The notes beneath the pieces were generated by a model. It saw nothing but the letters and a program-made list of their open reading frames with translations. It did no database searches and had not been told where the DNA came from. Source: Bacteroidota bacterium (GTDB lineage: Bacteria > Bacteroidota > Bacteroidia > Flavobacteriales_F > PHOS-HE28). From it: a stretch of DNA of 64,000 bases. Made by a program: the position numbers and the translations under genes. Location of the stretch: the NCBI GenBank assembly GCA_014584605.1, contig JACTMO010000053.1, positions 89,792-153,791 on the forward strand. Direction: 5' to 3'. Positions 9,999 to 46,438 of this stretch are shown in pieces. Position 1 is the first letter of the stretch; each line of letters starts with the position of its first letter.

Positions 9999-10008
9999 GC
10001 GGCGGCGG

Positions 10009-13800: not shown

Positions 13801-14272
13801 GGTGCCGGGCATTGCGCCGCAGATCGATGGCGTTGGCGAAGGGAATGGGCCCAAGCTCGCGGCTGCGCTGGGCGATGCTCGCCTCGATGAGGTCGCGGTG
13901 GCGGTCATCGTGCGCGGCCTGGTCCTTGAGCTGCAGGGTGTTGAGCAGCTTGTCGCGCACCTCGCCGAAATGCGCACCGATGATGCGGGCGGCCTCGGCA
14001 TGGCTGATCACCGGGCCCAGGCGGAAGAGCTTCACCAGCGGCCATGCGATGAAGCGGGCCAGCACCGCCGTGGCGGCCAGCAAGTACCCGTAGAAGAGGG
14101 CCGTGCGCACGCCGGTGCCGAAGCGGCCCACGTATTCAAGCCCGGTGGCCAGCAGGTAGGCCAGCACCAGCAACCCCACGCTGTACAGGGCCCCGCGCAA
14201 CAGCTGGTCCTTGTAATACTTGCGGATGAACGCGTCGAGCTTGGCGATCAGCAGGTCGTGGTCGGAGGCCAT
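10865..14272 (-). CDS. Large membrane-anchored coiled-coil protein, DUF4175-like, Q/E-rich
   Basis: N-terminal TM helices ('GALYSVGLLVLAYLLATGLEYV', 'LMLLLLLLLAAPSFI'), a ~600-aa Q/E/K-rich coiled coil with poly-Q runs, conserved C-terminus 'LKPYYRDRVNDYF'. Start taken at ATG 14270-14272 (MASDHDLL...). Confidence 0.6.
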   Translation of the reverse strand: MASDHDLLIAKLDAFIRKYYKDQLLRGALYSVGLLVLAYLLATGLEYVGRFGTGVRTALFYGYLLAATAVLARFIAWPLVKLFRLGPVISHAEAARIIGAHFGEVRDKLLNTLQLKDQAAHDDRHRDLIEASIAQRSRELGPIPFANAIDLRRNARHLRFALPPLMLLLLLLLAAPSFITGPTQRLIRHGSTFTPEAPFRFVVRNSSLEVPEQQDFELEVAVEGSVLPQQVDVLVDGRAIPLVKEGVDRFRHRFRNVGRDTPFRLTAQGVDSRDLLLTVVPDPAVLDVMITVEPPAYLGLPAEQLRTAGDATVPAGSRLTWSIGTRSTQRLDLAFADSTYRLAPAGDDRFSASRRVLEPLTYRMVPHHGDRSPSETPDHRIDVVPDLYPTIVVEERVDSAALKRRYFRGSIGDDHGFTRLQFAYRFIAGGDSVAPDQREGVQELSVDRRQVRQEFLHAWDLIDLPIQPGDKVEYWFEVWDNDGVHGAKRTRSATLVFEAPTLEALSQQRAQQSEAIAQDLQQGIKEARDLQRELDRMRRDLLDKKQPDWQDQQRMQKLLDRQKQLERSIERSTEQLRQQQQQQQEFRQVDERVLEKQQRLQELFEDVLSEEMKELYRQMQEMLDKLDKEKLLDKVEEMKLSQEDIEKELDRSLELFKQMEVEQRTEDIAQQLEKLAREQEELAEDTKAGDRPQDELQQRQDSLNKAFEDIREQVDELEKKNQELEKPLDLPDTAPTEEQIRQQQQQSSDQLQKKQNQKAGQSQQNAADQMKQMAFQMTSGMQSGQQQQQEEDMDAMRQLLENIVQLSFDQERVMDGLKATGVRDPRFMELGREQRELRSTARVIEDSLFALSKRVPQVQGTVNREMNAVNGHMDQALEHVGEARANERHKAMAADDQQRAMTALNNLALLLDEALQQMQQQMQSQMPGNGQCNKPGGTGSGQGKKPSMARMKAQQEALQKQLDAMRKALEEGRKKGEKPGQQNPGGHTPGMSQQLAQLAAQQAAIRKEMQRMAQELNKDGSGAGNGLNKLAEQMERQEKDIVNKNITPETLRRQQDIMTRLLEAEKAERERELDQKRTSNEGRDRPAEDPARFFEYQQRKAREAELLRTVPAGLKPYYRDRVNDYFGTFDTPEPR

Positions 14273-14382
14273 CGGCGTTGGCGTGGGGCGCCAAGGGGTA
14301 AAGGTACGGGGGTGCGCAGGGGGGCGGGCCCGCCTTCGGTACACCGCAGGGTGTTAAAAGGATCGAAGGGCGGGCGACGGGT

Positions 14383-20808: not shown

Positions 20809-20862
20809 CCCTCCTCGCGCGCATCGCCTATCTTCGCGGCCGCCCGTTCGCGGGCAGCACAG

Positions 20863-20933
20863 GGTCACGTGGCCGAGTGGCTAGGCAGAGGTCTGCAAAA
20901 CCTCGTACAGCGGTTCGACTCCGCTCGTGACCT
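20863..20933 (+). tRNA. tRNA-Cys (anticodon GCA)
   Basis: Cloverleaf read from the sequence: acceptor GGTCACG/CGTGACC, D-arm GCCGAGTGGCTAGGC, anticodon loop CTGCAAA, T-arm AGCGGTTCGACTCCGCT. Confidence 0.8.
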
Positions 20934-20938
20934 CCCCA

Positions 20939-20969: not shown

Positions 20970-21041
20970 CGGCCCATGGCTACCTTGGGCCGTGCAACGA
21001 TCCGGCCCGTCCCGCGTTAGGTGAACGCCCGTTCCCACCCC

Positions 21042-23432
21042 ATGAGCCCGTCCCCCCTTCTACCGCACCGGACAAAGGTCCTGGCCCTGCTGCTTGCGGC
21101 GCTGCCGTGCATGCCCGCCGCAGCCCAGCTGGCCATCGGTGAATGGCGCGACCATTTCCCCTATCGACAGACCATGGCCGTGGCCGAGGGTGCGGGCCAG
21201 GCCTGGTGCGCCACGCGCAACGCCGTGTTCTCCTACCACCGCATCAGCGGCGAGATGGAGCGCTTCACCAAGGTGAACGCCTTGAGCGATGTGGACGTGA
21301 GCATGCTGGGGTACAACAACGCCGTGGGCGGCCTGCTGGTGGGTTACCGCAACGGCAACCTCGACCTGCTGCGAGGGAGCACGGCCAGCAACCTGAGCGA
21401 CATCAAGCGCAGCAGCATCATCGGCGACAAAGGCATCTACGACATCCACTTCGAAGGCCCCCTGGCCTATCTGGCCTGCGGCTTCGGCATCGTGGTGGTG
21501 GATCTGTCGACCCTGGAGGTCCGCGAGACCTGGTTCATCGCCCCGGGAGGCACCCAGGTGAAGGTGAACGATGTGGCCTTCATGGGCGACTCCATATACG
21601 CGGCCACCAACGGAGGGCTCTTCGCCGCCTATCGGTACGCGCCGAACCTGGCCGCCTTCACTTCCTGGCAGCAACGCAGCGAGCTGCCCGTGCCCAACGG
21701 GCCTTTTAATGCGGTGAACGAGGTGGGCGGCAGGTTGGTGGTGAACTACCACGACGCCGGAGCGACCGACCGGGACACCGTGTTTTACCGCGAGGCCGGT
21801 GCTTGGCAGCGGCTCACGCATGCCTTCGGGCGACAGAACCTCGACATGTCCGTCACCGATGACGGCTCGGCCCTGCTCCTGTGCCAGTCCGATGCGGTGA
21901 CGCGCTACGATGCTGCGTTGGCCTTCGTCGGCGTGTATTCGGGCTATGCGGGCGATCTGCCGATGACACCCGCCATGGCCATCCCCGCGCAGGACGGGAT
22001 GGGCATCTGGGTGGCGGACCGAAACCAGGGGCTGGTGTTCCAGACCAACGGCATCTCGGGGGTCCCGGTGTACCCGCCCGGTCCCAGCACGGCCTCCGCC
22101 CAGCGCATGTCCGCCGCCAAGGGAGGGCTCTACGTGATCACCGGTGGCGTGCAGAGCAACTGGACCAACCAGTTCCGCAAGGAAGGGGTGCACCGGTTCC
22201 TTGCGGGGCAATGGTCCACCACGGACAAGACCAACGACCCCCTCATGCTATCGGGCGCCAATACCTTCGGAGGGGCGGTGAACGACTTCATGGCCGTGGC
22301 CACCGACCCGGAGGATGCGGACCATGCCTTCGTGGGCTCCTGGGAGGAGGGGGTGCTGGAGCTGCGGGGCGGCGCCGTGCAGACCATCCACAACGCGGGC
22401 AACAGCAGCCTGCAGGTGAACCCGGCGTTCGGCGCGGACAATGTCGTGCAGGTGGCCGGCATGGCCTTCGATGCGGAGGGCGATCTATGGGTGACCAACA
22501 GCAACTGCGGAGCACCCATCAGTGTGCGCACGGCGGGGGGCACCTGGCGGTCCTTCGCACCGGGTGCCGTGCTCAACAACAACAGCCTGCTCAGCGACAT
22601 CCTGCCCGCGAGGAACAACCGGCTCAAATGGATGATCCGTCCGCGCAGCAACGGCATGCTGGTGTTCACCGACAACGGCACGCTCAGCGACCCGGGCGAC
22701 GACCAGTACAAGGCGCTCACCACGGCCGAGGGGAGCGGGGGCCTGCCCTCCATGGACGTCTTCAGCATGGCCGAGGACCACGATGGGGAGATCTGGGTCG
22801 GCACCGGCAAAGGCGTGGCCGTGTTCTACATGCCCGATGCGGTCTTCGGCGGTGGCGATTTCGATTGCCAGCAGATCCTGATCGAACAGGGGGGCAACGT
22901 GCAGATCCTCCTGGAGACCGAGGCCGTGAGCGCCATCGCCGTGGACGGCGCGGACCGCAAATGGCTCGGCACCCAGGGCAGCGGGGTCTTCCTCGTCTCG
23001 GCCGATGGCACCGACCAGCTTTTGCATTTCACCGCCGAGGACAGCCCTCTGCCCAGCAACAACATCACCAGCCTGGCCATCGACGGGGAGACCGGAGAGG
23101 TCTTCATCGGAACGGACCAGGGCGTTGTGAGCTACCGGGGCACGGCCACCGAGGGCGGGCTCACCAACGCCTGTGCCAGGGTGTTCCCCAACCCGGTGCG
23201 CGAAACGTACAGCGGGCCCATCGCCATCTCCGGGCTGGTGCGCGACAGCGACGTGAAGGTGACCGATGTGGCCGGGAACCTGGTGTATCACACGGTATCG
23301 GACGGCGGCCAGGCGATCTGGCCGGGCACCGATATGGCCGGCAACCGGGTGAGCACGGGCGTGTACCTGGTGTTCGCCTCCGATGCGGAGGGCAACACCA
23401 AGTGCAACACCAAGGTGCTGGTGTTGCGCTGA
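21042..23432 (+). CDS. PorZ-like T9SS protein: beta-propeller domain(s) plus a type-A CTD
   Basis: Signal peptide 'MSPSPLLPHRTKVLALLLAALPCMPAAAQ' (the tracked ORF begins with GTG at 21021). Repeated 'GGLFAAYRY / IWVGTGKGVAVFY / KWLGTQGSGVFLV' propeller blades of the Reg_prop type. C-terminal 'VFPNPVRETYSGPIAISGL...VYLVFASDAEGNTKCNTKVLVLR' is a type-A CTD. Confidence 0.6.
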   Translation: MSPSPLLPHRTKVLALLLAALPCMPAAAQLAIGEWRDHFPYRQTMAVAEGAGQAWCATRNAVFSYHRISGEMERFTKVNALSDVDVSMLGYNNAVGGLLVGYRNGNLDLLRGSTASNLSDIKRSSIIGDKGIYDIHFEGPLAYLACGFGIVVVDLSTLEVRETWFIAPGGTQVKVNDVAFMGDSIYAATNGGLFAAYRYAPNLAAFTSWQQRSELPVPNGPFNAVNEVGGRLVVNYHDAGATDRDTVFYREAGAWQRLTHAFGRQNLDMSVTDDGSALLLCQSDAVTRYDAALAFVGVYSGYAGDLPMTPAMAIPAQDGMGIWVADRNQGLVFQTNGISGVPVYPPGPSTASAQRMSAAKGGLYVITGGVQSNWTNQFRKEGVHRFLAGQWSTTDKTNDPLMLSGANTFGGAVNDFMAVATDPEDADHAFVGSWEEGVLELRGGAVQTIHNAGNSSLQVNPAFGADNVVQVAGMAFDAEGDLWVTNSNCGAPISVRTAGGTWRSFAPGAVLNNNSLLSDILPARNNRLKWMIRPRSNGMLVFTDNGTLSDPGDDQYKALTTAEGSGGLPSMDVFSMAEDHDGEIWVGTGKGVAVFYMPDAVFGGGDFDCQQILIEQGGNVQILLETEAVSAIAVDGADRKWLGTQGSGVFLVSADGTDQLLHFTAEDSPLPSNNITSLAIDGETGEVFIGTDQGVVSYRGTATEGGLTNACARVFPNPVRETYSGPIAISGLVRDSDVKVTDVAGNLVYHTVSDGGQAIWPGTDMAGNRVSTGVYLVFASDAEGNTKCNTKVLVLR

Positions 23433-34397: not shown

Positions 34398-36320
34398 TCA
34401 CCGTTTCACCAGAACGCCGCGCACGCCGTCCGCCTCCACCACATACACCCCGGCGGCAAGGTCGGCCACGGGCAGCGCGATGCGCCGGTCGGTGATCGGT
34501 CGTGCGGGCAGAACGCGCACCGAACGGCCGTGGAGGTCGGTGATGCGCACATCCGCATGGCCTTGATGCGTGCCGCCCAGGTACAGCAGCGCATCGCCTT
34601 CGGCGGGGTTGGGGTACAGCACGGCACGGCCGTCGGTGGCTGCCAGCGTGGGCACGCGCAACACCAGGTTCTGTCCGGTGATCAGCCAGGTGTCCGGGTC
34701 CAGCAGCACGCTGTCCGCCTGGAAGGGCAGCCACAGGCCGAAGGTCTGGCCATCGGCGGTATGGTCCAGCACCACCAGGCTGTCCTGGGTGCCGTTCTTG
34801 AAGCGCAGGGGTACGGGGAGCTCGAAGAAGGCAACGCTGGGGTGCGAGCTGCTCTGGAACAGCTGCAGGGACACGTTGCCGCCCGCGTCCTGGCTCCATT
34901 CCACGGTGTAGGAGGGGTGGCCCTCGCCGATGTACCAATCGGCCATGAAGCCGTCGAGGTCCAGCCCGCTGGCGGCCTCCAGGTGGCCCTGTAGATCGCT
35001 GGTGTGGGCGTTGGAATAGGCCAGTTGCGGGTCGTTCAGGTAGTTGCGACAGCCGGCGAAGAAGGCGCTGTCCCCGCACACCCAGCGCAGCATGTGCAGC
35101 ACCATCGCGCCTTTGCGGTAGGTCAGGCGGGCGCTGAACAGACGGGCGATGTCGGTGGTGTCGCTCACCCGGACGCTGCCGTCCGGCAGGCTGGTGATGT
35201 CGGCCACCTGCGCCAGCTTCCACCCGGGCCAGTATTGTGCGGCGAGCGTTTCGTAGCACAGGCCGGAGAGGTAGGTCGCGAAGCCTTCGTTGAGCCACAG
35301 GTCCTGCCAGCTGGCGCAGGTCACCTTGTCGCCGAACCATTGGTGGGCCAGCTCATGGGCGGCCAGTTCGTAGCTCCACCCGCCCATGAAGGTCATGGTC
35401 TGGTGTTCCATGCCGCCGCCCCAGCCGAACTGCGCATGCCCGTACTGCTCGTCCGCGAAGGGGTAGTTGCCGAAGCGGCTGCTGTAGAAGGGCATCTGCT
35501 GGGCCACATCGCCGGCCACAAGCTGCGCCAGGTAGTCGTCCTGCGGATAGGCATAGGTCCACATCGTCACCGTGTCGCCGACCAGGGGGATCTGTGTCTG
35601 GCTGACGGTGTAGTCGCACACGGCCGTTGCGATCAGGTAGTAAGCGATGGGGTGGCGGTGGCGCCAGTGATGGATGCGTTGCGTGCCGCCGTTCACGGGG
35701 GTCACCGACATCAGCACGCCGTTGCTCACCGCCTCATATGCGGCCGGAACCGTGAGGAACACGTCGATGGAATCGATCTTGTCGTGCAGGTCCTGTTTGC
35801 AGGGCCACCAGTCGCGCGCACCGTAGGGTTCGCTCAGGGTCCACTGGGCGGTGTTGCCCAGTGGGTTGCCCACGGCGAAGGAGCCGAAGCCGCTGCCGCT
35901 GGGGGCACCGCTGTACACCACCGTCACACTGTCCATGGCGCCCGGGGCCAGCGGCGTGGGAAGGTCGATCCACAGGATGCCGTCGGTGCCGTGCGTCCAG
36001 ATGAGCGGGTCGGTGCCATGCAGCACGGCGCTCACGTGAAGGGCGGTGTCGGCATCGAAGCGCAGGGTGCTCAGTACGGCGGTGGCCGTGAAGTGGCTCC
36101 GCACCGTGCCGCTGATGAAGTTCACGGCCGGGTCGATCGACCATTCCAGCCGGTGGTGGTGAAGGTCATAGCCCCAGGTAGGGCTGCCGTGCCGCAACAG
36201 GTGTTCCGTCCCATGCCGCTCGCGCCAGGCCAGTTCGTCGAGCACGCCTTTGTCCCAGGCCACTTGCGCGGTGGCGCCCAGGGCCAGCAGCAGGGTGCCG
36301 AGCAGGGCAGGGTGCCGCAT
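34398..36320 (-). CDS. M1-family zinc metallopeptidase (aminopeptidase N-like) with T9SS type-A CTD
   Basis: 'GGMEHQTM' (GAMEN-like) and 'HELAHQWFGDKVT...WLNEGFATY' (HEXXH + E). C-terminal 'VLYPNPAEGDALLYLGG...YVVEADGVRGVLVKR'. Confidence 0.85.
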   Translation of the reverse strand: MRHPALLGTLLLALGATAQVAWDKGVLDELAWRERHGTEHLLRHGSPTWGYDLHHHRLEWSIDPAVNFISGTVRSHFTATAVLSTLRFDADTALHVSAVLHGTDPLIWTHGTDGILWIDLPTPLAPGAMDSVTVVYSGAPSGSGFGSFAVGNPLGNTAQWTLSEPYGARDWWPCKQDLHDKIDSIDVFLTVPAAYEAVSNGVLMSVTPVNGGTQRIHHWRHRHPIAYYLIATAVCDYTVSQTQIPLVGDTVTMWTYAYPQDDYLAQLVAGDVAQQMPFYSSRFGNYPFADEQYGHAQFGWGGGMEHQTMTFMGGWSYELAAHELAHQWFGDKVTCASWQDLWLNEGFATYLSGLCYETLAAQYWPGWKLAQVADITSLPDGSVRVSDTTDIARLFSARLTYRKGAMVLHMLRWVCGDSAFFAGCRNYLNDPQLAYSNAHTSDLQGHLEAASGLDLDGFMADWYIGEGHPSYTVEWSQDAGGNVSLQLFQSSSHPSVAFFELPVPLRFKNGTQDSLVVLDHTADGQTFGLWLPFQADSVLLDPDTWLITGQNLVLRVPTLAATDGRAVLYPNPAEGDALLYLGGTHQGHADVRITDLHGRSVRVLPARPITDRRIALPVADLAAGVYVVEADGVRGVLVKR

Positions 36321-36383: not shown

Positions 36384-37337
36384 TCAGCGTACGGCTTTCA
36401 GGATGGCGCGCACGGCCTCGCTCCGGCCCATGGTGTAGAAGTGCAGGCAGGGCACGTTGCGGGCGGTCAGTTCACGGGCCTGTTGGACACCCCATTCGAT
36501 GCCCACCTGCTTGACCTCCTCATCCGTGCGGCATTTGGCCAGCTCGGTGCTGAAGGCCACCGGCAGGTCCAGGTGGAAGGTCTTGGGGATGAAGGCGATG
36601 TGCTTCCGGTTGGTGAGGGGCTTGAGGCCGGGGATGATGGGCACGGTGATGCCCTCGGCGCGGCAGCGGTCCACGAAGGCGAAGTACTTGGCGTTGTCGA
36701 AGAACATCTGGGTCACCAGGTACTCGGCACCGGCCTCCACCTTCTGCTTCAGGTAGGCGATGTCGGTGTCCAGGTTCAGCGCCTCGGGGTGCTTCTCGGG
36801 GTAGCAGGCGGCGCCGATGCACAGGTCGGTGGGAGCGGTCTCCGTTTCCTCCTCGTGCAGGTAATGGCCCTTGTTGAGGGCGGCGATCTGGCGCACCAGG
36901 TCCACGGCGTGAGCGTGGCCATCGCGCTCGGGCACGAAATGCCCCTCGTTCTTGATGGCGTCGCCCCGCAGGGCCAGCACGTTGCCGATGCCCAGGAAGT
37001 TGAGCTCGATGAGGGCGTCCTCGGTGTCCTCCTGGCTGAAGCCACCGCAGATCAGGTGGGGCACCGTGTCCACGCTGTACTTGGCCTTGATCATGGCGCA
37101 GATGCCCACGGTGCCCGGGCGTTTGCGCAGGCGCACCTTGCGCAGCAGGCCATGCCCCATGTCCTTGTAGAGCACCTCTTCGCGGTGGTACGTGACGTTG
37201 ATGAAGCTCGGGCCGAACTCCATCAACGGGTCGATGCCTTCGTAGATCGAACGGATGTCGCGGCCCTTGAGCGGGGGCAGGATCTCGAAGCTGAAGAGCG
37301 TGGCGGAGGCCTTGCGCAGGTGGTCGGTGACCTTCAT
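36384..37337 (-). CDS. metF: 5,10-methylenetetrahydrofolate reductase
   Basis: 'FSFEILPP', 'SFINVTY', 'HLICGG', 'LRGD', 'YLVTQMFFD' are MetF signatures. Confidence 0.9.
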   Translation of the reverse strand: MKVTDHLRKASATLFSFEILPPLKGRDIRSIYEGIDPLMEFGPSFINVTYHREEVLYKDMGHGLLRKVRLRKRPGTVGICAMIKAKYSVDTVPHLICGGFSQEDTEDALIELNFLGIGNVLALRGDAIKNEGHFVPERDGHAHAVDLVRQIAALNKGHYLHEEETETAPTDLCIGAACYPEKHPEALNLDTDIAYLKQKVEAGAEYLVTQMFFDNAKYFAFVDRCRAEGITVPIIPGLKPLTNRKHIAFIPKTFHLDLPVAFSTELAKCRTDEEVKQVGIEWGVQQARELTARNVPCLHFYTMGRSEAVRAILKAVR

Positions 37338-37400
37338 GGCGGGCGGCGAAGATAGGCGAACGCCCCGCTGGGCGGGGCGTTGGCACGGGTGGCATCGCGC

Positions 37401-39521
37401 TCAGCGCAACAGGGTCACATGGCCGGAGTACTCCTTGCCGTCGCTGCGCGTGAGAACGTAGTAGTAGGTGCCCTCGCTCACATCCTTGGGCGACCACTGG
37501 TTGCGATAGCTGGCGCTCTCGTACACCTTCTGGCCCCAGCGGTTGTACACCTTCAGGTCGCTGTTGGGGAAGTACTCCACGCCGGAGAATTCCAGGTTGT
37601 CGTTATCACCATCGCCGTTGGGGCTGAACACATTGGGCACGAAGATCTCCGTGGGGATCACCAGGAAGAGGTAGGTGGCCGTGTCGGTGCAGCCGTTGCT
37701 GGTGGTCACCGTCAGGGTGATCGGGTAGGTGCCCGGCTCGTCGAAGGTGATGCCTGCGGTGCTGCCGGTGCCGCCCCCCTGGCCGCCCAGGTCCCACAGC
37801 CACTGCGTGATGGGGTCCTGGCTGCTGCTGCCGTCGCTGAAGATCACCGGGGTCCCGGGGAACACCGGACCGGGTGGATCGGCGAGGATGCCGGCCTCGG
37901 GCCCGGGAGCGGTCACCACGTTCACGGGAGCCGAGGTGCCCTGGCAGCCCGCATCATTGGTCACCGTCACCGTATAGGTGCCGGTGTTCACCGCCACGGT
38001 CGGGGTCTGTGCGCCGGTGCTCCACAGGTATTGTGCGTAGGGCTGTGTGGTGCTGAGCACGGCCGGGTCGTCCCCGCAGGAGAACAGGTTGCCGGTGATC
38101 ACGGGCTGGGGCACCGGAGCTTCGGTCACCACCACCGTGTTGCTGCCGAAGGTGCAGTAGCCGGCGGTGACCTCCACGCTGTAGGTGCCCGGGCCCACCA
38201 GCACGCTGTTGCCGTCGTACCCGTTGCTCCAGGTGTACGTGTCGTAGAGCGGGGGCACCGAGAGGGTGACGCCCTGCCCGGCGCAGGCCACGGTGTCGCC
38301 GGCGATCACCGGGGCCGGCAGGGTGGTGAAGTACACCTCCACCACGATGTCGATGGTGGTGGTGAGCGGCGGCGAGCCGTTGTCGGTGGCCGTGAAGGTG
38401 ATGGTGTGGAAACCGGCCTCCAGCGGGGTGGGGGTGAACTGGCCCTGCACCACCACCGAGTTGTTGCCGCTGGTGTTCAGCACCTCGGCATAGCCCGAGA
38501 GGGTGGGGGCCGTGGAACTGGCCACCGTCACCTGGCCCTGCTCGGGGGCGATGAAGTTCATCTCGATGTCCACCAGCTCGCCGGTGCACACCCGCACGGT
38601 GTCGCACAGGAAGGTGCTGCTGGCGATGGGCGGGATGTTCTGGGTGCTCACCGAGGTGGTGAAGACGAAGTTCTGATCGTCCAGCCAGTCCACGCCGTCC
38701 GGCACGCCAAAGGGCCCATCATAGGCCATGCCCGGCTGGTCAAAGGTGCCGAACTGGATGTAGTCCACCCCATTGCCACGGTTGGCACCCACCACCGCCG
38801 GGATGCCCCCGAAGCCGTTGGTGCCCTGGGAGGCCGCACCAGTGGTCCAGTCCATGTCCTTGTAGCAGAAGCTCACGTTCCGGCCCACGCCGATCACCGG
38901 ATCGTTGCCGTCGGTGATGATCAGCTGGAAGGTGCATTTCTTGTCGGTCTCCGAGTTGTAATACCCCACATCCACCCAGTTCACATACAACGCCGAGGGG
39001 GTCACCTTGTAGAGCACCTGACCGCCGTTGAGGCCCATGCCGTCGTCGCCGCGGGTGTCCACGTCCGCCCAGAAAGGCGCCACCATGATGAAATCGGCGT
39101 TGGGGAAGGAGCTTGCGCTGTACGTGGGGTAGGGGGCCTGGAAGGAGATGTTGCCGTTGTTGTTGATGAACAACGTGTTGTAGAGGTCGCCGTAAAGATT
39201 GAACTGGAAGGGGATGTAGATGGCCGCAGAGGAGCCGTCGTCGTTGGGCGCCAGGGCCAGTTGGTAGGTGCTATCCGGCGTGATCCAGCAGTTACAGTCG
39301 CCGTTCACACCACCACCGCCGCCTTTGGGACGGGCTGGTGCTGCCGTGGAGCGGTGTACCGGCGGGGTTATGGGCTCCTGCGCCGGTCGCAGCAATTCGA
39401 ATTCGGCGGGCAGCCTGCCCTGGGCCTTCAGGGCGTCGTAGTCGGCCGTGGTGAGCTTCACTTGGGCCACGGCGGCGCTGTGCAGCACCATGGCGGCGAA
39501 AAGGAGGAGCGGTTTGCGCAT
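37401..39521 (-). CDS. Adhesin-like T9SS type-B CTD protein, paralog A (NIDO-like N-terminal domain, Ig/PKD-like repeats)
   Basis: Signal peptide 'MRKPLLLFAAMVLHSAAVAQ'. The N-terminal ~270 aa ('DCNCWI...IPFQFNLYGDLYNTLFINNNGNISF...FWADVDTRG') is tentatively nidogen-like. C-terminal 'VPNVFSPNGDGDNDNLEF...VYNRWGQKVYE...GTYYYVL...GHVTLLR'. Confidence 0.75.
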   Translation of the reverse strand: MRKPLLLFAAMVLHSAAVAQVKLTTADYDALKAQGRLPAEFELLRPAQEPITPPVHRSTAAPARPKGGGGGVNGDCNCWITPDSTYQLALAPNDDGSSAAIYIPFQFNLYGDLYNTLFINNNGNISFQAPYPTYSASSFPNADFIMVAPFWADVDTRGDDGMGLNGGQVLYKVTPSALYVNWVDVGYYNSETDKKCTFQLIITDGNDPVIGVGRNVSFCYKDMDWTTGAASQGTNGFGGIPAVVGANRGNGVDYIQFGTFDQPGMAYDGPFGVPDGVDWLDDQNFVFTTSVSTQNIPPIASSTFLCDTVRVCTGELVDIEMNFIAPEQGQVTVASSTAPTLSGYAEVLNTSGNNSVVVQGQFTPTPLEAGFHTITFTATDNGSPPLTTTIDIVVEVYFTTLPAPVIAGDTVACAGQGVTLSVPPLYDTYTWSNGYDGNSVLVGPGTYSVEVTAGYCTFGSNTVVVTEAPVPQPVITGNLFSCGDDPAVLSTTQPYAQYLWSTGAQTPTVAVNTGTYTVTVTNDAGCQGTSAPVNVVTAPGPEAGILADPPGPVFPGTPVIFSDGSSSQDPITQWLWDLGGQGGGTGSTAGITFDEPGTYPITLTVTTSNGCTDTATYLFLVIPTEIFVPNVFSPNGDGDNDNLEFSGVEYFPNSDLKVYNRWGQKVYESASYRNQWSPKDVSEGTYYYVLTRSDGKEYSGHVTLLR

Positions 39522-39535
39522 GGATCGTTCGGAGG

Positions 39536-42451
39536 TCACTTCAGCAGGCTCACATGGCCCACCCATTCCTGCTTGTCGGCGGCGAACACCGGTCGGCCGA
39601 TCAGCCGCCAGGTGTACACCCCGGAGGGCAGGATCTCCCCGCCGCCTTGGGCGCGGCCGTCCCAGCCCTGCAGGATGTCGTGGGTCTTGAAGATGAGCTG
39701 ACCCCAGCGGTCATAGACCTCCAGGGTATGCTCTTCGGGCACCAGGTCCGCCAGGATGGGCAGGAAGATCTCATTGAGGTTGTTGCCGTCGGGCGTGAAG
39801 GCGTTGGGCACGTAGATGGCCGGCACGTACACCGGCACCACCTTGCACAGCGAATCGGCGCAGCCATAGCGGTCGACCACATGCAGGCACACCTCGTGGT
39901 CATCGCCGATCACATCGCTGAACTCGTAGTACAGCGTGCGCTGGGTGGCGGTGTCCGTACCGTTGAAGGTCCACAGCCATTCAACGGCCTCGGGGTCGTC
40001 GCTGGCGAAGTAGATGGATGCGTTGTGCTCGGTTCCCGGGTTGGGGCTGAAGGTGAAGGTGGCCTGCGGGGCCGGCTTGGCGATCACCGCGCCCGGCACC
40101 TGCAACTGGTCGGTGCAGCCTGCGGGGGTGGTCACCGTCAGCCCCACGGTGTAGGAGCCCGGCGTGCTGTACAGGTGCGTCACGCTGTCGCAGCCCAGGG
40201 TGCTGGACCCATCGCCCAGGTCCCATACGCAGACCCCGCCCAGGAAGGCGCTGTCGGTGGTGTTGTACAGGCCCGCCAGCACCGGTACGCACCCGCTGTC
40301 GGGGTCCACCGTGAAGGTCACCACGGGCAGGGGGTTCACGGTCACCTCCACCAGGGCCGTGTCGATGAGATGGGTGCAGCTGCCGCCGCCCTGCACGGCG
40401 TACAGGTAGGTACCAGCGGGGTCCACCGACGGATCGAGCATGGCGGCGTGCGCCTGTCCCCCCGGGTCGGTCCAGCTGCCGCCCAAGTCCGGCGAGCCGC
40501 CCAACAAGGGGAACAACGGGGTCGCCGGGCCGTCCGCACAGAGCGTCAGCAGGGCGTCCTGCCCGGCGTCGGGTTCGGGGTCCACGGACAGGGTAAGGGT
40601 GGCGGTGAGCGTCGGGCAGGGCGCCGTGGCGGTCACCGTGTAGGTGTAGGCGCCTGGAGGATCGTTGGCGGCGTTGAAGGTGCCCGGGAAGGGTTGCTGG
40701 TTGGGATCGGTCCACGTGCCGGTGGCGTCGGGCGTGCCGCCCAGGGTGGCCAGCATGTCCAGCGGCGCGGCGTCGGTGCACAGGGTGAGGGCGGCGTCCG
40801 TGCCGGCGTCCACGGCCTGGGGAATGGAGACCGTGACAAAGGCCGTGTCGTTGGGGCAGGGACTTGTGCCGGACACGATGTAGCGGTATGTCCCGGCCGG
40901 GTCGGTACCGGGGTCAAGCGTTCCGGAGAAGACGCTGCCGTTGGGATATTGCCATGCGCCCGTGGCCATGGGGCCGCCGGGGATGTTCAGGAAGAGGTCG
41001 TCCGGCCCGTCGCTGCTGCAATAGGACAGGGCCACGTCCTGCCCGGCGTTCACCGAGGCCTGGGTGGTCATGGTCACCGTGCCGGTGGAGGCGCAGCTGC
41101 TGCCCTGACCCACGGCATAGAGGTAGGCCCCGTCGATATCGGTGCCCGGGGTGAAGGTGCCGGTGTGCACGTTGCCGTTGGGGTCGGTCCAGTCGCCGTT
41201 GGCCGGTGGATTTCCACCCAGCAGGGTCAGCATGTCCAGCGGCGGTTCCGAATCGCACACCGTCAGTGCGCCCGATGTGATCACCGACCCCTGCTGCACC
41301 TCGACGATGATGTTCACGGTGGAGGTCATCGATGGGGTGCCGTCGTCGGTGCCCTGGATGGAGATGACGTGGAAGCCCACGTCGGCCGGAGTGGGCAGGA
41401 TGTCGATGCTGATGGTGGCGGCCAGGCCCGGCACCAGGCTGGTGATGTTGAAGTTGGTCAGGGTGAGGCTGGTGGCCGAGGGGGTGGTGATCTGGCCCGG
41501 CTCGGGGGAGAGGAAGGTGACGTCCAGGGTGGCCAGGTCGCCCACGCACAGGATGATCGAATCGCACACGCTCTGGCCGCTCACCACCGGAGGCACGTTG
41601 GCCGTGGTGATGTCGGTGCTGAAGCTGAAGTACTGGTCGTCCAGGAAGCTCACCCCATCGTTGAGGCCGAAGGGCCCGTCGTAGGCCGTGCCGGGCTGAT
41701 CGAAGCGGCCGAACTGGATGTAGTCCACACCGTTGCCCTCGTTGGCCCCCACGCTGGCGGGCGTGCCGCCAAAGCCGTTGGTGCCCCCGCTGGCAGAGCC
41801 CGTGGTCCACTGCATGTCCTTGTAACAAAAGCTCACGTTGGCCCCGTTGGGCACCACCGGATCGGTGCCGTCGGTGATGATCAATTGGAAGGTGTTGACC
41901 TTGTCGGTCATGCTGTTGTAGTAGCCCACGTTGGTCCAGTTCACGTACAGGGCCGTGGAGGTCACCTTGAACTGCACCACGTTGTTGCCGAAACCCGGTC
42001 CTCGCAGGTCCACATCGGCCCAGAAGGGGGCCACCATGGTGTAGCCGTTGAAGGGGAATCCCGTGGAGCTGAACGTGCCATAATACTGGCCGAAGCTGAC
42101 GTTGCCGTTGATGTTGATATAGACCGTGTTGTACAGCGTGCCGTAGAGATAGAACTGGAAGGGCAGCATGATCGGGCCGTAGCTGCCGTCATCGGCGTTG
42201 TGGAATCCGCTCGCATCCCACTGACTGGTGTTGTTGATCGTGGTATAGCTGGCGTCGGGCAGGATCCAGCAATCGCAGGTGGCGCTGCCGCCGCGTTGCA
42301 TGTACGGATCGGGTGCCGGGGCACCTCCCGTTGCTGGTGCAGGGGGGTGGGTGCTGAGCTTCCAGGCGTCGTAACTGGCCTGGTCGTACGGTACCTGTCC
42401 TGTGCCGGTCAGCGCGGTCAGCAGCAGCAGGGGGATCAGGAGGTGCCGCAT
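39536..42451 (-). CDS. Adhesin-like T9SS type-B CTD protein, paralog B (same NIDO-like N-terminal domain, longer repeat region)
   Basis: The N-terminus 'CDCWILPDASY...MLPFQFYLYGTLYNTVYININGNVSF...FWADVDLRG' aligns with paralog A over ~270 aa. PKD-like 'VWDLGDGSSTLG'. C-terminal 'VPNAFTPDGNNLNEIFLP...VYDRWGQLIFK...GHVSLLK'. Confidence 0.75.
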   Translation of the reverse strand: MRHLLIPLLLLTALTGTGQVPYDQASYDAWKLSTHPPAPATGGAPAPDPYMQRGGSATCDCWILPDASYTTINNTSQWDASGFHNADDGSYGPIMLPFQFYLYGTLYNTVYININGNVSFGQYYGTFSSTGFPFNGYTMVAPFWADVDLRGPGFGNNVVQFKVTSTALYVNWTNVGYYNSMTDKVNTFQLIITDGTDPVVPNGANVSFCYKDMQWTTGSASGGTNGFGGTPASVGANEGNGVDYIQFGRFDQPGTAYDGPFGLNDGVSFLDDQYFSFSTDITTANVPPVVSGQSVCDSIILCVGDLATLDVTFLSPEPGQITTPSATSLTLTNFNITSLVPGLAATISIDILPTPADVGFHVISIQGTDDGTPSMTSTVNIIVEVQQGSVITSGALTVCDSEPPLDMLTLLGGNPPANGDWTDPNGNVHTGTFTPGTDIDGAYLYAVGQGSSCASTGTVTMTTQASVNAGQDVALSYCSSDGPDDLFLNIPGGPMATGAWQYPNGSVFSGTLDPGTDPAGTYRYIVSGTSPCPNDTAFVTVSIPQAVDAGTDAALTLCTDAAPLDMLATLGGTPDATGTWTDPNQQPFPGTFNAANDPPGAYTYTVTATAPCPTLTATLTLSVDPEPDAGQDALLTLCADGPATPLFPLLGGSPDLGGSWTDPGGQAHAAMLDPSVDPAGTYLYAVQGGGSCTHLIDTALVEVTVNPLPVVTFTVDPDSGCVPVLAGLYNTTDSAFLGGVCVWDLGDGSSTLGCDSVTHLYSTPGSYTVGLTVTTPAGCTDQLQVPGAVIAKPAPQATFTFSPNPGTEHNASIYFASDDPEAVEWLWTFNGTDTATQRTLYYEFSDVIGDDHEVCLHVVDRYGCADSLCKVVPVYVPAIYVPNAFTPDGNNLNEIFLPILADLVPEEHTLEVYDRWGQLIFKTHDILQGWDGRAQGGGEILPSGVYTWRLIGRPVFAADKQEWVGHVSLLK

Positions 42452-42458
42452 GCCGGGT

Positions 42459-43646
42459 TCAACGGATGATGTTCACGGTGTTGCTGAAGATCTTGGCCCG
42501 GCCCGCCAGGTCCACCACCTCCACGGCATAAAGGTAGGTCCCACTGGGGCAGGGCTGGCCGTGCAGATCGTTACCGTCCCAAGGACGAAGGTCGTTGGCC
42601 GAGTACACCATCGAACCATTGGTGCTGCTGAAGATCCGCACGGCCACACGTTGATATTGGCTGCCCTGCGGTACCCATTGTTCGTTCTCCCCATCGCCGT
42701 TGGGGGTGAACACATTGGGGATGAAGAGCACGGGCTCGGGGACGGCCGTTCCCCCGGCCTCCGGTCCAGGCTCGGGTACCAGCACCTCGACAGGGCTCCG
42801 TGCAGCCTCAGGCGTGCGGTCCTTGCCGTGGGACAGCTCGTGCAGCACCTCCTCCACGACCTGCCTGCCCGCAGGGTCCGGTACGGCCTCCATCGTCCGT
42901 TGTGCGACCTGTACGGAGGCGGCGACCGCTTCGGATGTCGGGGCATCGGATCCGGCGACCTGCGCCGGTGCGGGGTCGGTGGACACCATGTGTTCCTGCG
43001 CGGTCGTGGCGGCGCCATCGGTCGTTGCCCCCTCGGGTTCGGCGGGAAGCGTGACCGTTCGGGCGGGTTGGGGTGCGGCTGCCGGGGTGAGCACCGTGGC
43101 CTTCGGTCCTGGGGGCGCTCCGGCGTTGGCGGTGGGCGTGTCCGCGATCACCGGTGCGGTGACCACGGAGCGAGGGACGGGGTTCACCACCGGTGCCTTC
43201 ACCGCGACCGGTCCTGCACGGTGCTTGTCCGCCGCCAGGTACAGCCCGCCGACCAGCAACAAGGCCGCTGCACCACCGACCGCCCAACCCACCACGGAAC
43301 TGCCGCCAGGAATGGTCGCGCCCCGGCCCAGCTGACCTTCGATGGCGGTCCATGCGGAGTTCGGTACGGCCGCCTCATGACCGGCGAAGCGCTCGCGCAA
43401 CAGGCTGTTCACCGGATCGGCCTGGCCCACCCGTTGTTCGATGGCCCCCCAACTGGCGGGGTCCACCGCGACCTCGTGGTCGGCGAAGCGCTCGCGCAGC
43501 AGCCCGCAGATCGGGTCGGTACCTACGGCGGCCATGGCCGTCCGGGTGCGGATCGCCTCCCACACCCCGCGTGGTACGGCCATCTCATGGTCGGCGAAGC
43601 GCTCGCGCAGGGTCCGGGTCAGTTCATCCTTCCGCTCCATCGCCAT
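42459..43646 (-). CDS. Single-pass membrane protein, anti-sigma-factor-like: cytoplasmic triple repeat, TM helix, Pro/Ala-rich linker, T9SS type-B CTD
   Basis: Immediately downstream of, and overlapping, the ECF sigma gene. Three ~23-aa repeats 'LLRERFADHE(M/V)AV...W.AI'. TM 'VVGWAVGGAAALLLVGGLYLAA'. Low-complexity P/A/T linker. C-terminal 'IPNVFTPNGDGENEQWVP...VRIFSSTNGSMVYSANDLRPWDGNDL...GTYLYAVEVVD...NIIR'. Confidence 0.6.
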   Translation of the reverse strand: MAMERKDELTRTLRERFADHEMAVPRGVWEAIRTRTAMAAVGTDPICGLLRERFADHEVAVDPASWGAIEQRVGQADPVNSLLRERFAGHEAAVPNSAWTAIEGQLGRGATIPGGSSVVGWAVGGAAALLLVGGLYLAADKHRAGPVAVKAPVVNPVPRSVVTAPVIADTPTANAGAPPGPKATVLTPAAAPQPARTVTLPAEPEGATTDGAATTAQEHMVSTDPAPAQVAGSDAPTSEAVAASVQVAQRTMEAVPDPAGRQVVEEVLHELSHGKDRTPEAARSPVEVLVPEPGPEAGGTAVPEPVLFIPNVFTPNGDGENEQWVPQGSQYQRVAVRIFSSTNGSMVYSANDLRPWDGNDLHGQPCPSGTYLYAVEVVDLAGRAKIFSNTVNIIR

Positions 43647-44181
43647 AGATGTCGGCCGCCTCCTTGGGCAGCAGTTTGCGCAGGTAGGCGCGTGCTTTCA
43701 TGAACTGGCTCTTCGAGGTGTTCTCGCTGATCCCCATCATCTCGCTGATCTCCTTGTGGGCGTAGCCTTCGATGGCGAAGAGGTTGAACACCGCCCGGTA
43801 TCCCGGGGGCAGGGCCTGGATCAGTTCCATGAGCTCATCGGTGCTCATCTGGCCAAGCACTTGGGCATCCTCGCTGTGCAGGTGCTCGGCCTCGGTGAGG
43901 TCCAGGCTGTGGTCGTAGGGCTTGTTCCGCCGGATGTGGTCCAAGGCGGTGTTCACCATGGTGCGGGCGATCCACCCCCCCAGCGGACCATCGCCGCGGT
44001 AGTGGTCCATTTTCTGGAACACCTTAACGAACCCGTCCTGCAGGATGTCCTGGGCCTGTTCACGCCCCGGGGCGTACCGCATGCAGATGCTCATCATCTT
44101 CCGGGCGTAGCAACGGTAGAGCTCCTTCTGGGCCAGGGGGTCGCCCTGGAGGCATCCGTTCACGAGCTGTTCGTCGGTCAT
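43624..44181 (-). CDS. RNA polymerase ECF-type sigma-70 factor
   Basis: Region 2 'ELYRCYARKMMSICMRYAPGREQAQDILQDGFVKVF' and region 4 'LPPGYRAVFNLFAIEGYAHKEISEMMGISENTSKSQ'. ATG at 44179-44181; the tracked ORF begins with TTG at 44208. Confidence 0.9.
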   Translation of the reverse strand: MTDEQLVNGCLQGDPLAQKELYRCYARKMMSICMRYAPGREQAQDILQDGFVKVFQKMDHYRGDGPLGGWIARTMVNTALDHIRRNKPYDHSLDLTEAEHLHSEDAQVLGQMSTDELMELIQALPPGYRAVFNLFAIEGYAHKEISEMMGISENTSKSQFMKARAYLRKLLPKEAADIYGDGAEG

Positions 44182-44383
44182 GTGTGGCGCACCAAAGCCG
44201 TTCAACAAAAGGTGCTTCCGGGTGGAATGATGCGATCCGCCCCCGAAAAGTTGCCCGGCCCCTGCAAGTTAGGGCACCGGCCCGGGTCCGGGGAAGCCGA
44301 CCGCCGGACTTCGCACCGACCGTCGGCCCCTTCGGCCAACGCCGCCTTACCTTCGTGCGTCCCAGAAGACAACAGAACCGAAC

Positions 44384-45013
44384 ATGAAGACCGCGATCGC
44401 GATCTCCGCCATGGCCTTGCTGGGCATGGCGCCGCACGACGAATTGAAGGACCTGAACCTGGGCGACCCGCTGCCCATGCCCGACCACCGCATGCTGGAC
44501 GTGGGCGGCCAGGAGAAGAGCCTGCGGGAACTGGCCGGCCGCAATGGCCTGTTGGTGATCTTCACCTGCAACACCTGCCCCTTCGTGGTGGGCACCGAGG
44601 ACAGCGAAGGCTGGGAGGGGCGTTACCCCGGGCTGGGCGTTTTTGCCCGGCAGCACGGGGTCGGCATGGCACTGGTGAACAGCAACGAGGCCAAGCGCAC
44701 GGCGGGCGATGGGTATGAGGACATGCGGAAACGGTACGAGGAGAAGGGCTACAACCATTACTACCTGCTGGACACGGGCCACCAGGTGGCCGATGCCTTC
44801 GCGGCCCGCACCACGCCTCATGTGTTCCTGTTCGACAAGGACCTCAAACTGGTGTACAAGGGTGCGGTGGACGACCGCGTGGAGAAGGCGGCCGACGTGA
44901 AACAGCCCTTCGTGCGCAACGCCATCACCAACCTGGCCGAAGGCCGCACGATCGATCCGACGGTGACGCGCAACATCGGGTGCAGCATCAAGCGGGTGGA
45001 GCACACGCACTGA
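44384..45013 (+). CDS. Thioredoxin-fold (redoxin/AhpC-TSA-like) protein
   Basis: 'LLVIFTCNTCPFV' CxxC in a thioredoxin-fold context; 'TPHVFLFDKDLKLVYKGAVDD'. Confidence 0.7.
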   Translation: MKTAIAISAMALLGMAPHDELKDLNLGDPLPMPDHRMLDVGGQEKSLRELAGRNGLLVIFTCNTCPFVVGTEDSEGWEGRYPGLGVFARQHGVGMALVNSNEAKRTAGDGYEDMRKRYEEKGYNHYYLLDTGHQVADAFAARTTPHVFLFDKDLKLVYKGAVDDRVEKAADVKQPFVRNAITNLAEGRTIDPTVTRNIGCSIKRVEHTH

Positions 45014-45130
45014 AGCTGCGCTGTGGACAACAGGCTTGCGGCCGCTCCCCCGGGGCGGCCGCGCTGTTGAAAAGAGGTGCCTGTGCGCACGCTGCGCACT
45101 TCGTTCCTTTGTGCGAAAGGCAAAGCGGAC

Positions 45131-46438
45131 ATGAACGTGCTGCTGATCGGTAGCGGGGGACGCGAGCACGCCCTGGCCTGGAAACTGGCCCAGAGCACCC
45201 TGCTGGACACCCTCTACATCGCCCCGGGCAACCCGGGCATGGCGCGCCACGGGCGCCTGGTGGACCTCGACCTGCACGATGGCAAGGCGCTGCGTCGCTT
45301 TCTGTTGGACAAGGAGATCCGGTATGTGGTGGTGGGGCCCGAGGGTCCCCTGGTGGAAGGGTTGCACGACCGTATCGCCGCGGACCCCAAGCTGGCGGAG
45401 GTCACCGTGATCGGACCGCGTGCGGCGGCAGCCCGCCTGGAGGGCAGCAAGGACTTCGCCAAGGAGTTCATGTTCCGCCACGGCATCCCCACGGCCGCAC
45501 ACCGCACCTTCGGCCCCGGGGAGTTCAAACAGGCCGTGGCACACCTGGAGCGGGTGAAGCCGCCGTATGTGCTGAAGGCCGACGGACTGGCCGCAGGCAA
45601 GGGCGTGGTGATCACCGCCGACCGCAAGGAGGCGGAAAAAGTGCTGCGCGACATGCTGGAGAAAGGCCGCTTCGGCGCGGCCGGGGAACGCGTGGTGATC
45701 GAGGACCATCTGGCCGGCATCGAGGTCAGTGCCTTCCTGATCACCGACGGCCGGTCCTTCAAGATGCTGCCCTCGGCCAAGGACTACAAGCGCATCGGCG
45801 ACGGCGACACCGGCCCCAACACGGGCGGCATGGGCGCCGTGAGCCCCGTGCCCTTTGCGGACAAGGACTTCATGCAGAAGGTGCATGACCGCATCGCCGC
45901 CCCGACCATCCGGGGGCTGCAGCAGGAGGGCATCGCCTACCAGGGCTTTCTGTTCATGGGCCTGATGAACGTGGGCGGTGAGCCGTACGTGATCGAGTAC
46001 AACGTGCGCCTGGGCGATCCGGAGGCCGAGGCCATCCTGCCAAGGCTGCGCAGCGACCTCATGGACCTGTTCGAGGGTATCGCCACCGGAACCCTGAGCG
46101 AACGGCATGTGGACGTGGACGACCGCACCTGCGTGAGCGTGGTGCTGGCCAGCGAGGGCTATCCCGGGGAGGTGATCAAGGGGCGGACCATACAAGGGCT
46201 GCAGCAGGTGAGCGGGGCCCATGTGTTCCACGCCGGGACCGCCGAGGGGCCGCAGGGCCTGGTGACCGCCGGCGGTCGTGTCCTGGTGGTCACCGCCATG
46301 GGCAAGGACCTGGAGCATGCCATCCTGAACTGCTACACGCAGGCGGCAGGCGTTACCTTCCAAGGAAGGCAGTTGCGGATGGATATCGGCCAGGACCTGG
46401 TGCGCCAGCCGGCCCGGACGGGTGCCGCGCAGACCTGA
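45131..46438 (+). CDS. purD: Phosphoribosylamine--glycine ligase
   Basis: 'MNVLLIGSGGREHALAWKL', ATP-grasp 'VLKADGLAAGKGVVI', 'GPNTGGMGAVSP'. Start at ATG 45131. Confidence 0.95.
   Translation: MNVLLIGSGGREHALAWKLAQSTLLDTLYIAPGNPGMARHGRLVDLDLHDGKALRRFLLDKEIRYVVVGPEGPLVEGLHDRIAADPKLAEVTVIGPRAAAARLEGSKDFAKEFMFRHGIPTAAHRTFGPGEFKQAVAHLERVKPPYVLKADGLAAGKGVVITADRKEAEKVLRDMLEKGRFGAAGERVVIEDHLAGIEVSAFLITDGRSFKMLPSAKDYKRIGDGDTGPNTGGMGAVSPVPFADKDFMQKVHDRIAAPTIRGLQQEGIAYQGFLFMGLMNVGGEPYVIEYNVRLGDPEAEAILPRLRSDLMDLFEGIATGTLSERHVDVDDRTCVSVVLASEGYPGEVIKGRTIQGLQQVSGAHVFHAGTAEGPQGLVTAGGRVLVVTAMGKDLEHAILNCYTQAAGVTFQGRQLRMDIGQDLVRQPARTGAAQT

Follow-up and report, generated by a model that had tools for sequence, protein, structure and literature searches.

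Type IX secretion system (T9SS) cargo whose C-terminal domain (CTD) is of type B is anchored by PorP/SprF-like shuttles, with 'orphan' substrates also existing (PMC9143113, PMC12618676), and in Flavobacterium johnsoniae each of five conserved type-B motifs is needed to secrete the CTD of SprB (PMC12618676). In Porphyromonas gingivalis the CTD protein PorA feeds into signalling by SigP, an extracytoplasmic function (ECF) sigma factor (PMC7712824). Here we describe a locus in which the genes for an ECF sigma factor, for a membrane protein with a type-B-like CTD and for two type-B cargo proteins with a nidogen-like NIDO domain follow one another; it lies in a 64,000-nucleotide stretch of a Bacteroidota genome (assembly GCA_014584605.1, contig JACTMO010000053.1, positions 89,792 to 153,791), hereafter the window, whose numbering is used throughout.

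FlgM, the anti-sigma factor of sigma-28, is a soluble protein that is itself exported and carries a recognition signal for the export apparatus whose substrates are under the control of that sigma factor. To our knowledge the matching of T9SS cargo expression to secretion capacity is poorly understood outside Porphyromonas, and we know of no function established for the NIDO domain, even in animals. The locus described here shows a deeply conserved and tight link of a dedicated ECF sigma factor to type-B T9SS cargo. On balance, and with some reserve, we read it as probably a conserved sigma-driven operon with a secretion-coupled partner and surface NIDO cargo, belonging to uncultured high-G+C Flavobacteriales. 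Its four genes are:

43624-44181, minus strand: ECF sigma factor gene, 185 amino acids (aa), ATG at 44181
42459-43646, minus strand: sigma partner gene, putative anti-sigma factor, 395 aa, single-pass membrane protein
39536-42451, minus strand: gene B, NIDO type-B cargo, 971 aa
37401-39521, minus strand: gene A, 706 aa, ATG at 39521, stop at 37401

The four-gene locus and its candidate promoter

Open reading frame (ORF) analysis places the four genes head to tail on the minus strand between 37401 and 44181, in high-G+C DNA (about 67% across the window). The start codon of the sigma factor gene was set by the alignment of 24 orthologues, all of which start MTDE(Q/R); a mechanical ORF list runs the same frame on to a TTG at 44208. 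The ATG of the partner gene is 23 nt inside the sigma factor gene, giving a 23-nt overlap, the partner TGA is followed after 7 nt by the ATG of gene B, and the gene B TGA is followed after 14 bp by the ATG of gene A. An earlier reading of the window from its letters and ORFs (the sequence-only reading) had described a tandem minus-strand pair with a 14-bp gap, which agrees with these coordinates, and a protein B of 971 aa, which is correct; the 707 aa that it gave for protein A counted the stop codon (the protein has 706), its 8-bp gap between anti-sigma and cargo genes measures 7 bp, and its term 'giant' is overstated for proteins of 706 and 971 aa. The same locus is found, identical, on seven contigs of independent sequencing runs and an assembly artefact is therefore ruled out.

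The conservation of the locus was assessed by scanning one genome per species with a profile of the cargo head, which gave 78 loci that were mapped by ORF and phmmer analysis. The sigma factor and its partner are found as a pair in 25 of these 78 species-level loci, and the pair is followed by at least one NIDO gene in 22 of the 25 and by two in 15, all from Flavobacteriales, the gaps between cargo genes in these 15 being at most 31 bp. In 23 of the 25 loci the sigma gene runs into the partner gene by 4-26 nt, and the distant loci L087-L089 also have an overlap; even where the partner is only 30% identical, an overlapping ECF sigma gene precedes it and a NIDO gene follows. From gene calls and their precomputed Pfam assignments the order is sigma factor, CHU_C protein, NIDO protein of 971 aa, NIDO protein of 706 aa, metF and M1 peptidase in GCA_016717445.1 and GCA_016713875.1 and, fragmented, in GCA_016712025.1. 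NIDO genes that are more distant (those of Crocinitomicaceae, among others) lack a sigma factor neighbour.

The upstream regions of the sigma factor gene from 24 loci are unalignable save for one block, GGCAAC(T/C)T-N12-(GA)TCGCATCAT. In the window this block and the hairpin that follows gene A are placed as follows:

44227-44255, minus strand: candidate ECF-type promoter GGCAACTT-N12-GATCGCATCAT, the sole conserved upstream block
44248-44255, minus strand: -35-like element
44227-44237, minus strand: -10-like element, ending 45 nt before the sigma ATG
37359-37381, minus strand: perfect 10-bp GC-rich hairpin AACGCCCCGC-CCA-GCGGGGCGTT, read from the sequence

With AAC in the -35-like element and a CG-containing -10-like element some 15 nt downstream, the candidate looks like an autoregulated ECF promoter. 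The conserved block ends about 15-20 nt before the ATG in the aligned loci; in the window about 33 further nt separate block and ATG (44182-44226, minus strand), an insertion which among the aligned loci is otherwise present only in L001, a contig of the same sequence. The pattern GCAAC-N14-17-GCATCAT has one match in the window, where 0.04 would be expected, and is found in 27 of 86 loci, once in each except for L016, which has two; all loci whose upstream sequence is long enough have the motif there, as do the distant L087 and L089. When metagenome contigs were scanned with the pattern at least 120 stretches were returned, nearly all of them chance matches in unrelated organisms, and the seven that lie upstream of sigma orthologues brought no further regulon member. 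A scan of 37000-44700 for consensus sigma-70 promoters and terminators, which does not cover Bacteroidota or ECF promoters, gave no promoter and one irrelevant terminator-like site on the plus strand.

The hairpin starts 19 nt past the stop codon of gene A, before metF, and the 63-nt spacer after gene A folds at -27.2 kcal/mol (z -2.24). It is a probable end of the operon and, having no T-tract, went unreported by the consensus terminator scan. Rfam and tRNA scans returned no match in the locus.

A related ARRANGEMENTS, a paralogous cluster present in related genomes, has a sigma factor that matches that of the window at about E 1e-42 and has the classical motif GGCAACC-N16-CGTCTA upstream. 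Its partner combines a single N-terminal repeat and a membrane helix with two PKD domains and a CTD that, like that of the window's partner, has no RWG motif; a B-type NIDO gene (about 993 aa) then follows. It was found at:

L039, L040, L044, L048 and L052, about 5600-10750 in each: paralogous cluster

It could be argued that the four genes are neighbours that are transcribed separately, with the cargo outside sigma control, an arrangement that we regard as unlikely. Consensus scans cannot detect the housekeeping promoters of Bacteroidota, and in L040 and L044 a terminator-like hairpin does lie between the paralogous partner and NIDO genes. The 7- and 14-bp gaps of the window, however, leave no room for a promoter outside coding sequence nor for a comparable hairpin, the same tight spacing recurs in 15 species-level loci, the lone conserved non-coding motif sits upstream of the sigma gene and the sole strong hairpin is the one after gene A. 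Taken together the conserved order, the tight spacing, the lone candidate promoter and the hairpin mean that co-transcription is well supported by comparison. The single four-gene operon proposed by the sequence-only reading thus appears strongly supported (conserved order, gaps of at most 31 bp, one promoter candidate, a terminal hairpin), and the ECF-type -35/-10 that it suggested looking for upstream of 44181 has a single conserved candidate.

The operon is flanked by genes that are kept as neighbours in GCA_016713875.1, GCA_016717445.1 and GCA_016712025.1:

31059-33683, plus strand: 874-aa type-B CTD protein with no further Pfam match
34398-36320, minus strand: M1 peptidase with a type-A CTD
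36384-37337, minus strand: metF, adjoining the operon downstream of gene A

The sigma factor and its membrane partner

The sigma factor matches Sigma70_r2 (60.4 bits), r4_2 (57.6 bits) and Sigma70_ECF (33.2 bits) in Pfam and TIGR02937 in NCBIfam (92.9 bits, cut-off 42.9), with no equivalog-level NCBIfam model above its cut-off; by these profile matches it is a generic ECF (group 4) factor. The partner has a less usual make-up, its regions being approximately:

43311-43646, minus strand: three helix-loop-helix repeats
43221-43310, minus strand: membrane helix
42732-43220, minus strand: Pro/Ala-rich disordered linker
42462-42731, minus strand: type-B-like CTD without RWG

The sole database matches of the partner are to CHU_C (46.6 bits, cut-off 27) and TIGR04131 (38.6 bits, cut-off 35), both in the CTD. 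An AlphaFold2 model built with 111 relatives predicts that residues 2-107 are helical, that a membrane helix spans 124-142, that 143-305 are disordered and that 306-395 fold as a beta-sandwich, the last with a predicted local distance difference test score (pLDDT) of 95-98. Each of the three N-terminal repeats carries RF.GHE..V....W..I, and the Pro/Ala-rich linker has about 165 disordered residues. A helical domain of about 110 aa thus precedes the sole hydrophobic segment, with no N-terminal Sec signal peptide. Across 100 family members the mean net charge flanking the membrane helix is +0.2 on the N-side and -1.3 on the C-side, which favours an N-in orientation. A Foldseek search with the model returned generic Ig (immunoglobulin), FN3 and PKD sandwiches for the CTD; the helical repeats had no match.

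Searched exhaustively, the first 150 residues of the partner gave 127 clusters at 50% identity. Among 111 family members that were scanned 102 end in CHU_C, and NCBI names the relatives only by their CTD. Five of the 111 end instead in an outer-membrane beta-barrel domain (OMP_b-brl_2). These five suggest that the N-terminal repeat domain is modular and sigma-coupled, and that it has been fused to varied outer-membrane-directed C-termini. The label 'anti-sigma' had been given by the sequence-only reading from position alone; it finds no matching anti-sigma family model, and the type-B-like CTD had been missed. From position together with topology the partner is nevertheless most likely an anti-sigma factor that holds the sigma factor. 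Our literature searches found no anti-sigma factor with a T9SS CTD, nor a description of the conserved module of sigma factor, CTD-bearing partner and type-B cargo, which would be a variant of ECF signalling.

The CTD of the partner differs from that of the cargo in one consistent way. Whilst it passes the profile thresholds it does not have the full motif set of cargo, with (N/D)RWG: RWG is present in none of 100 partner-family CTDs and in all of the 116 cargo CTDs from the same loci (83 of 83 from NIDO cargo, 33 of 33 from other cargo), and the six 'other' type-B ORFs that were at first counted without RWG are all sigma-adjacent partner proteins. What the partner CTDs keep is PN.FTPNGDG.N[DE], W[DN]G, G.Y.Y and a terminal hydrophobic-hydrophobic-R. 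Since RWG is lost systematically in partners and retained in cargo, we infer that the partner CTD docks and is not exported.

There is a tentative case for going further and seeing in the partner a new class of anti-sigma factor, whose sensor would be a degenerate, RWG-less type-B signal carried on a periplasm-spanning linker. Just as tentatively, docking of that signal at the T9SS translocon or at a PorP-like shuttle could report the occupancy or integrity of the type-B route to the sigma factor. If true, the T9SS would have its own counterpart to FecR/FecA signalling or to secretion-coupled control of the FlgM type. An altered copy of the cargo's secretion signal in a sigma factor's partner is a concrete hypothesis, and one that can be tested cheaply.

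The partner might alternatively be no anti-sigma factor at all, being instead a membrane-tethered accessory or an unusual type-B substrate (such as a protein that escorts or assembles the NIDO cargo), with the sigma factor regulated in some other way. The N-terminus that matches no anti-sigma family, the naming of relatives by their CTD, a CTD that passes the curated type-B thresholds and the fact that the partner always travels with type-B cargo, non-NIDO cargo included, would all fit with this. Nonetheless we think it rather improbable, as the partner frame overlaps the sigma gene in nearly all loci, a helical domain of such a size before a sole membrane helix and without a signal peptide is the standard layout of an anti-sigma factor, fusion of the N-terminal motif to other C-termini, as in the five beta-barrel members, is what would be expected of a modular sigma-binding domain, and the loss of RWG speaks against ordinary export.

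The NIDO cargo proteins

Genes A and B encode proteins of similar plan, with the following approximate regions from N- to C-terminus:

Gene A, minus strand: signal peptide
38622-39296, minus strand: NIDO head of A
38328-38621, minus strand: cadherin-like Ig domain of A
37887-38327, minus strand: two cysteine-pair repeats of A
37656-37886, minus strand: PKD domain of A
37404-37655, minus strand: type-B CTD of A
Gene B, minus strand: signal peptide
41582-42277, minus strand: NIDO head of B
41288-41581, minus strand: cadherin-like Ig domain of B
40337-41287, minus strand: four cysteine-pair repeats of B
39827-40336, minus strand: PKD region of B
39539-39826, minus strand: type-B CTD of B

The two proteins are 49% identical over 387 N-terminal residues (BLASTP, E 7e-114), similarity resuming in the PKD/CTD tail, and on this alignment they are tandem paralogues. 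Pfam finds NIDO (PF06119) in both, at 80.7 bits in A (E 1.8e-22) and 74.2 bits in B (E 1.8e-20) against a cut-off of 25, the match covering model positions 1-155 of 186 in each. At the other end both have CHU_C (PF13585; 76.6 bits in A and 52.8 in B, cut-off 27), PKD_4 (41 and 44.8 bits, cut-off 27) and the TIGR04131 type-B sorting domain of NCBIfam (48.4 and 36.6 bits, cut-off 35), which B barely passes. Hydrophobic signal-like N-terminal segments, MRKPLLLFAAMVLHSAAVAQ in A and MRHLLIPLLLLTALTGTGQ in B, were recognised by inspection.

Between head and tail the two proteins differ. The stalk repeats, defined by cysteine spacing and by MAFFT alignment of the segments, number two in A, each of about 70 aa and bounded by cysteine pairs, and are followed by one PKD domain; B has four repeats of another type, of about 80 aa and again with cysteine pairs, and a PKD region of about 170 aa, so that the stalk is about 225 aa long in A and about 490 aa in B. 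Searched against Pfam at E<=1 the stalk repeats gave only sub-threshold matches to PKD_6, Ig_7 and Big_9. The sequence-only reading had the NIDO homology, the type-B T9SS CTD at the end of both proteins and the differing middle regions right, and the outcome that it had named as refuting, the lack of a significant NIDO match, did not arise; it had also recognised the shared N-terminal module, which proves to extend over some 390 residues and not the 270 that it gave.

The head was modelled with AlphaFold2 from residues 75-397 of A and 54 homologues, giving an all-beta structure with a pLDDT of 91.5 and a predicted template modelling score (pTM) of 0.89, in which we see two parts, NIDO over about 225 residues and Ig-type over about 100. 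The Ig-type part carries a cadherin-like ...TATDNGSPPLTTTIDIVVEV... signature, with marginal matches to the cadherin chains of PDB and sub-threshold Pfam matches to Big_9 and Cadherin. Searched by sequence against PDB chains, the NIDO module matched no solved NIDO structure, the marginal cadherin matches being confined to the Ig part, and Foldseek with the NIDO and Ig model against PDB gave best TM-scores of at most 0.27, for alignments that either covered the Ig-like part only or had a root-mean-square deviation above 15 Å. A confidently modelled head without a match among solved structures means that these small bacterial proteins could make the fold and the ligand of NIDO tractable.

A search with the head module gave 1,193 proteins at E<=1e-5, with type-A or type-B CTDs, and those of the listed matches that have a named source are all from Flavobacteriales, Crocinitomicaceae or other Bacteroidota. 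Members are typically 470-570 aa long, several are named 'nidogen-like domain-containing protein' by NCBI, and the blocks NNNGN(I/V)SF and APFWADVD are invariant in this bacterial NIDO family. No publication on the NIDO proteins of bacteria came up in our literature searches. With their longer stalks A and B belong to a named but unstudied family, and the cargo pair itself is ordinary and not new in kind.

The age of the duplication that gave rise to the pair can be judged from a neighbour-joining tree built on the NIDO modules of 28 loci. One clade holds the A-type copies (about 700-730 aa) and another holds most B-type copies (about 970-1030 aa), with a second group of copies of about 975-1020 aa branching beside the A clade. 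The exact lengths of 971 and 706 aa are kept in genomes whose sigma partner is only 54% identical, and the NIDO head is the best conserved segment among orthologues, at 71-86% identity in A and 58-91% in B; identity is lower in the signal/linker, stalk and PKD parts (51-79% in the stalk). The separate clades, constant lengths and conserved head thus indicate an old duplication, not ongoing diversification: it appears to predate species divergence and to have been kept by purifying selection with two fixed stalk lengths. The sequence-only reading had seen in the pair a diversification typical of surface proteins under selection, which does not agree with the old duplication, the retained lengths and a head that is the most conserved segment. 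A recent tandem duplication with repeat regions diversifying rapidly under selection would suit the different type and number of repeats in the two stalks and the independent tandem pairs found in other lineages (L065, L069 and L074), yet it is very improbable given that copies of the A and B types fall into separate clades across many genomes, that 706 and 971 aa are unchanged in distinct species and that stalk identity among orthologues is near that of other regions.

NIDO is not the only cargo to be found with the sigma/partner pair. Two metagenome loci have, after the pair, a type-B protein carrying CUB, PKD, P-domain (proprotein-convertase) and CHU_C domains, and in many relatives a third NIDO gene (about 470-510 aa, type-A CTD) lies directly upstream of the sigma gene, a position which in the window (44384-46438) is occupied by a redoxin gene and purD. 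The coordinates of these genes are:

L108, 4044-6590, minus strand: non-NIDO cargo, CTD close to that of gene A
L178, 5413-7875, minus strand: non-NIDO cargo, CTD close to that of gene A
L007, 7888-9327: third NIDO gene, found also in L021, L022, L024, L025, L030 and L051

Because some loci have non-NIDO cargo, the constant feature is the sigma factor, its RWG-less CTD partner and type-B cargo, with NIDO as the usual cargo.

The adhesin or matrix-binding role that the sequence-only reading gave to A and B is inferred from their architecture. They might instead be released as soluble binding proteins or enzymes, the NIDO domain being catalytic or carbohydrate-binding on an external polymer. Many homologues are short (about 470-490 aa), stalkless and have a type-A CTD, no cognate PorP/SprF anchor gene is adjacent, the conserved neighbours include a secreted M1 peptidase and the weak structural matches include accessory domains of glycosidases. 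These structural matches are, however, to the Ig-like part only and do not exceed the low TM-scores given above, there is no match to a catalytic family, and a head, repeat stalk and type-B CTD in sequence resembles the anchored SprB (PMC9143113, PMC12618676). We therefore treat release in soluble form as the less likely fate, though one to be taken seriously. With no shuttle gene adjacent, A and B would be 'orphan' type-B substrates by the definition of PMC12618676.

The T9SS machinery was judged from the window, and core genes such as sprA and gldKLMN lie outside it. The window does contain several other CTD proteins and a PorZ-like gene, the latter matching PorZ_N_b_propeller at 104.7 bits. 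Further features of the window are:

21021-23432, plus strand: PorZ-like gene, adjoining tRNA-Cys (20862-20936) and an S9 prolyl oligopeptidase gene
58033-59814, plus strand: 593-aa ORF ending in a T9SS tail of type-A-like form, possibly a horizontal acquisition, within the sole low-G+C segment of the window (0.577, compared with about 0.67)
10865-14344, minus strand: 1,159-aa ORF with coding-like codon bias and no Pfam match, within a stretch whose AT skew is unusually strong (-0.25 to -0.32)

Proposed mechanism and comparison with described systems

In the mechanism that we propose the ECF sigma factor probably transcribes its own four-gene operon from GGCAACTT-N12-GATCGCATCAT. The partner, translationally coupled to the sigma gene, would be made as a single-pass inner-membrane protein whose cytoplasmic helical repeats sequester the sigma factor and whose long Pro/Ala linker sets the type-B-CTD-like beta-sandwich in the periplasm. 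There the CTD, not itself exported, would contact a T9SS or outer-membrane component, such that release of the sigma factor would depend on the state of the type-B secretion route in a FecR-like trans-envelope arrangement. A and B would be exported by the T9SS and held at the surface by a PorP/SprF-like shuttle encoded elsewhere, where they would present a conserved NIDO ligand-binding head at two distances from the cell.

A number of observations weigh against this scheme. At the level of transcription the -10-like element has CGC where the canonical element has CGT, and what speaks for co-transcription of the four genes is their order and spacing. Residues 1-150 of the partner match no anti-sigma family in Pfam or NCBIfam, even at E<=10, the window's own partner departs from the family trend with a net charge of +2 on the C-side of its membrane helix, and the five type-B motifs that have been published may not include RWG. 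Neither the window ORFs that were scanned nor the gene tables of L006-L008 yielded a PorP/SprF-like gene. Solved structures offer no informative counterpart to the NIDO fold, so that the argument for a ligand-binding head is one from architecture, and the sigma/partner pair may be linked to the type-B route rather than to NIDO. The significance of the locus would be high only if the reading of the partner as secretion-coupled is confirmed, and is otherwise moderate.

The animal NIDO proteins (nidogen-1/2, MUC4, alpha-tectorin and SNED1) are like A and B in profile homology and in their extracellular location. They carry EGF, G2, AMOP or VWD modules, whereas the heads of A and B are fused to a cadherin-like Ig domain, to repeats of the Ig/PKD kind and to a T9SS CTD; unlike the animal proteins, A and B are predicted to be exported by a bacterial secretion system. 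By these profile comparisons A and B are homologous to nidogen at the domain level only and are not orthologues of it. Among bacterial proteins SprB and Fjoh_3952 of F. johnsoniae and PG1035 of P. gingivalis share with A and B a signal peptide, a repeat-rich body and a TIGR04131/PF13585 end; A and B differ in being much smaller than SprB, in their NIDO head and in being encoded in a dedicated ECF sigma operon in which there is no sprF/porP-like gene.

The likeness to FlgM is conceptual, as the partner is membrane-anchored and its signal domain is without a motif that all cargo keep. FecI/FecR has the same order of an ECF sigma factor followed by a single-pass protein; the partner here would likewise have a cytoplasmic N-terminal part and a periplasmic C-terminal part able to meet an outer-membrane partner, and the promoter here appears to be autoregulated. 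It differs in that the partner has no FecR match, in that its periplasmic module is a type-B-like CTD on a linker of about 165 aa and in that no TonB-dependent transducer is adjacent here. The PorXY-SigP-PorA pathway likewise has a CTD-bearing protein influencing an ECF sigma pathway connected with the T9SS. PorA, however, is a small secreted CTD protein that acts via a two-component system, whereas here the CTD is within the sigma factor's own membrane partner, and unlike the regulation by PorXY-SigP-PorA the operon of the window encodes cargo and not T9SS machinery.

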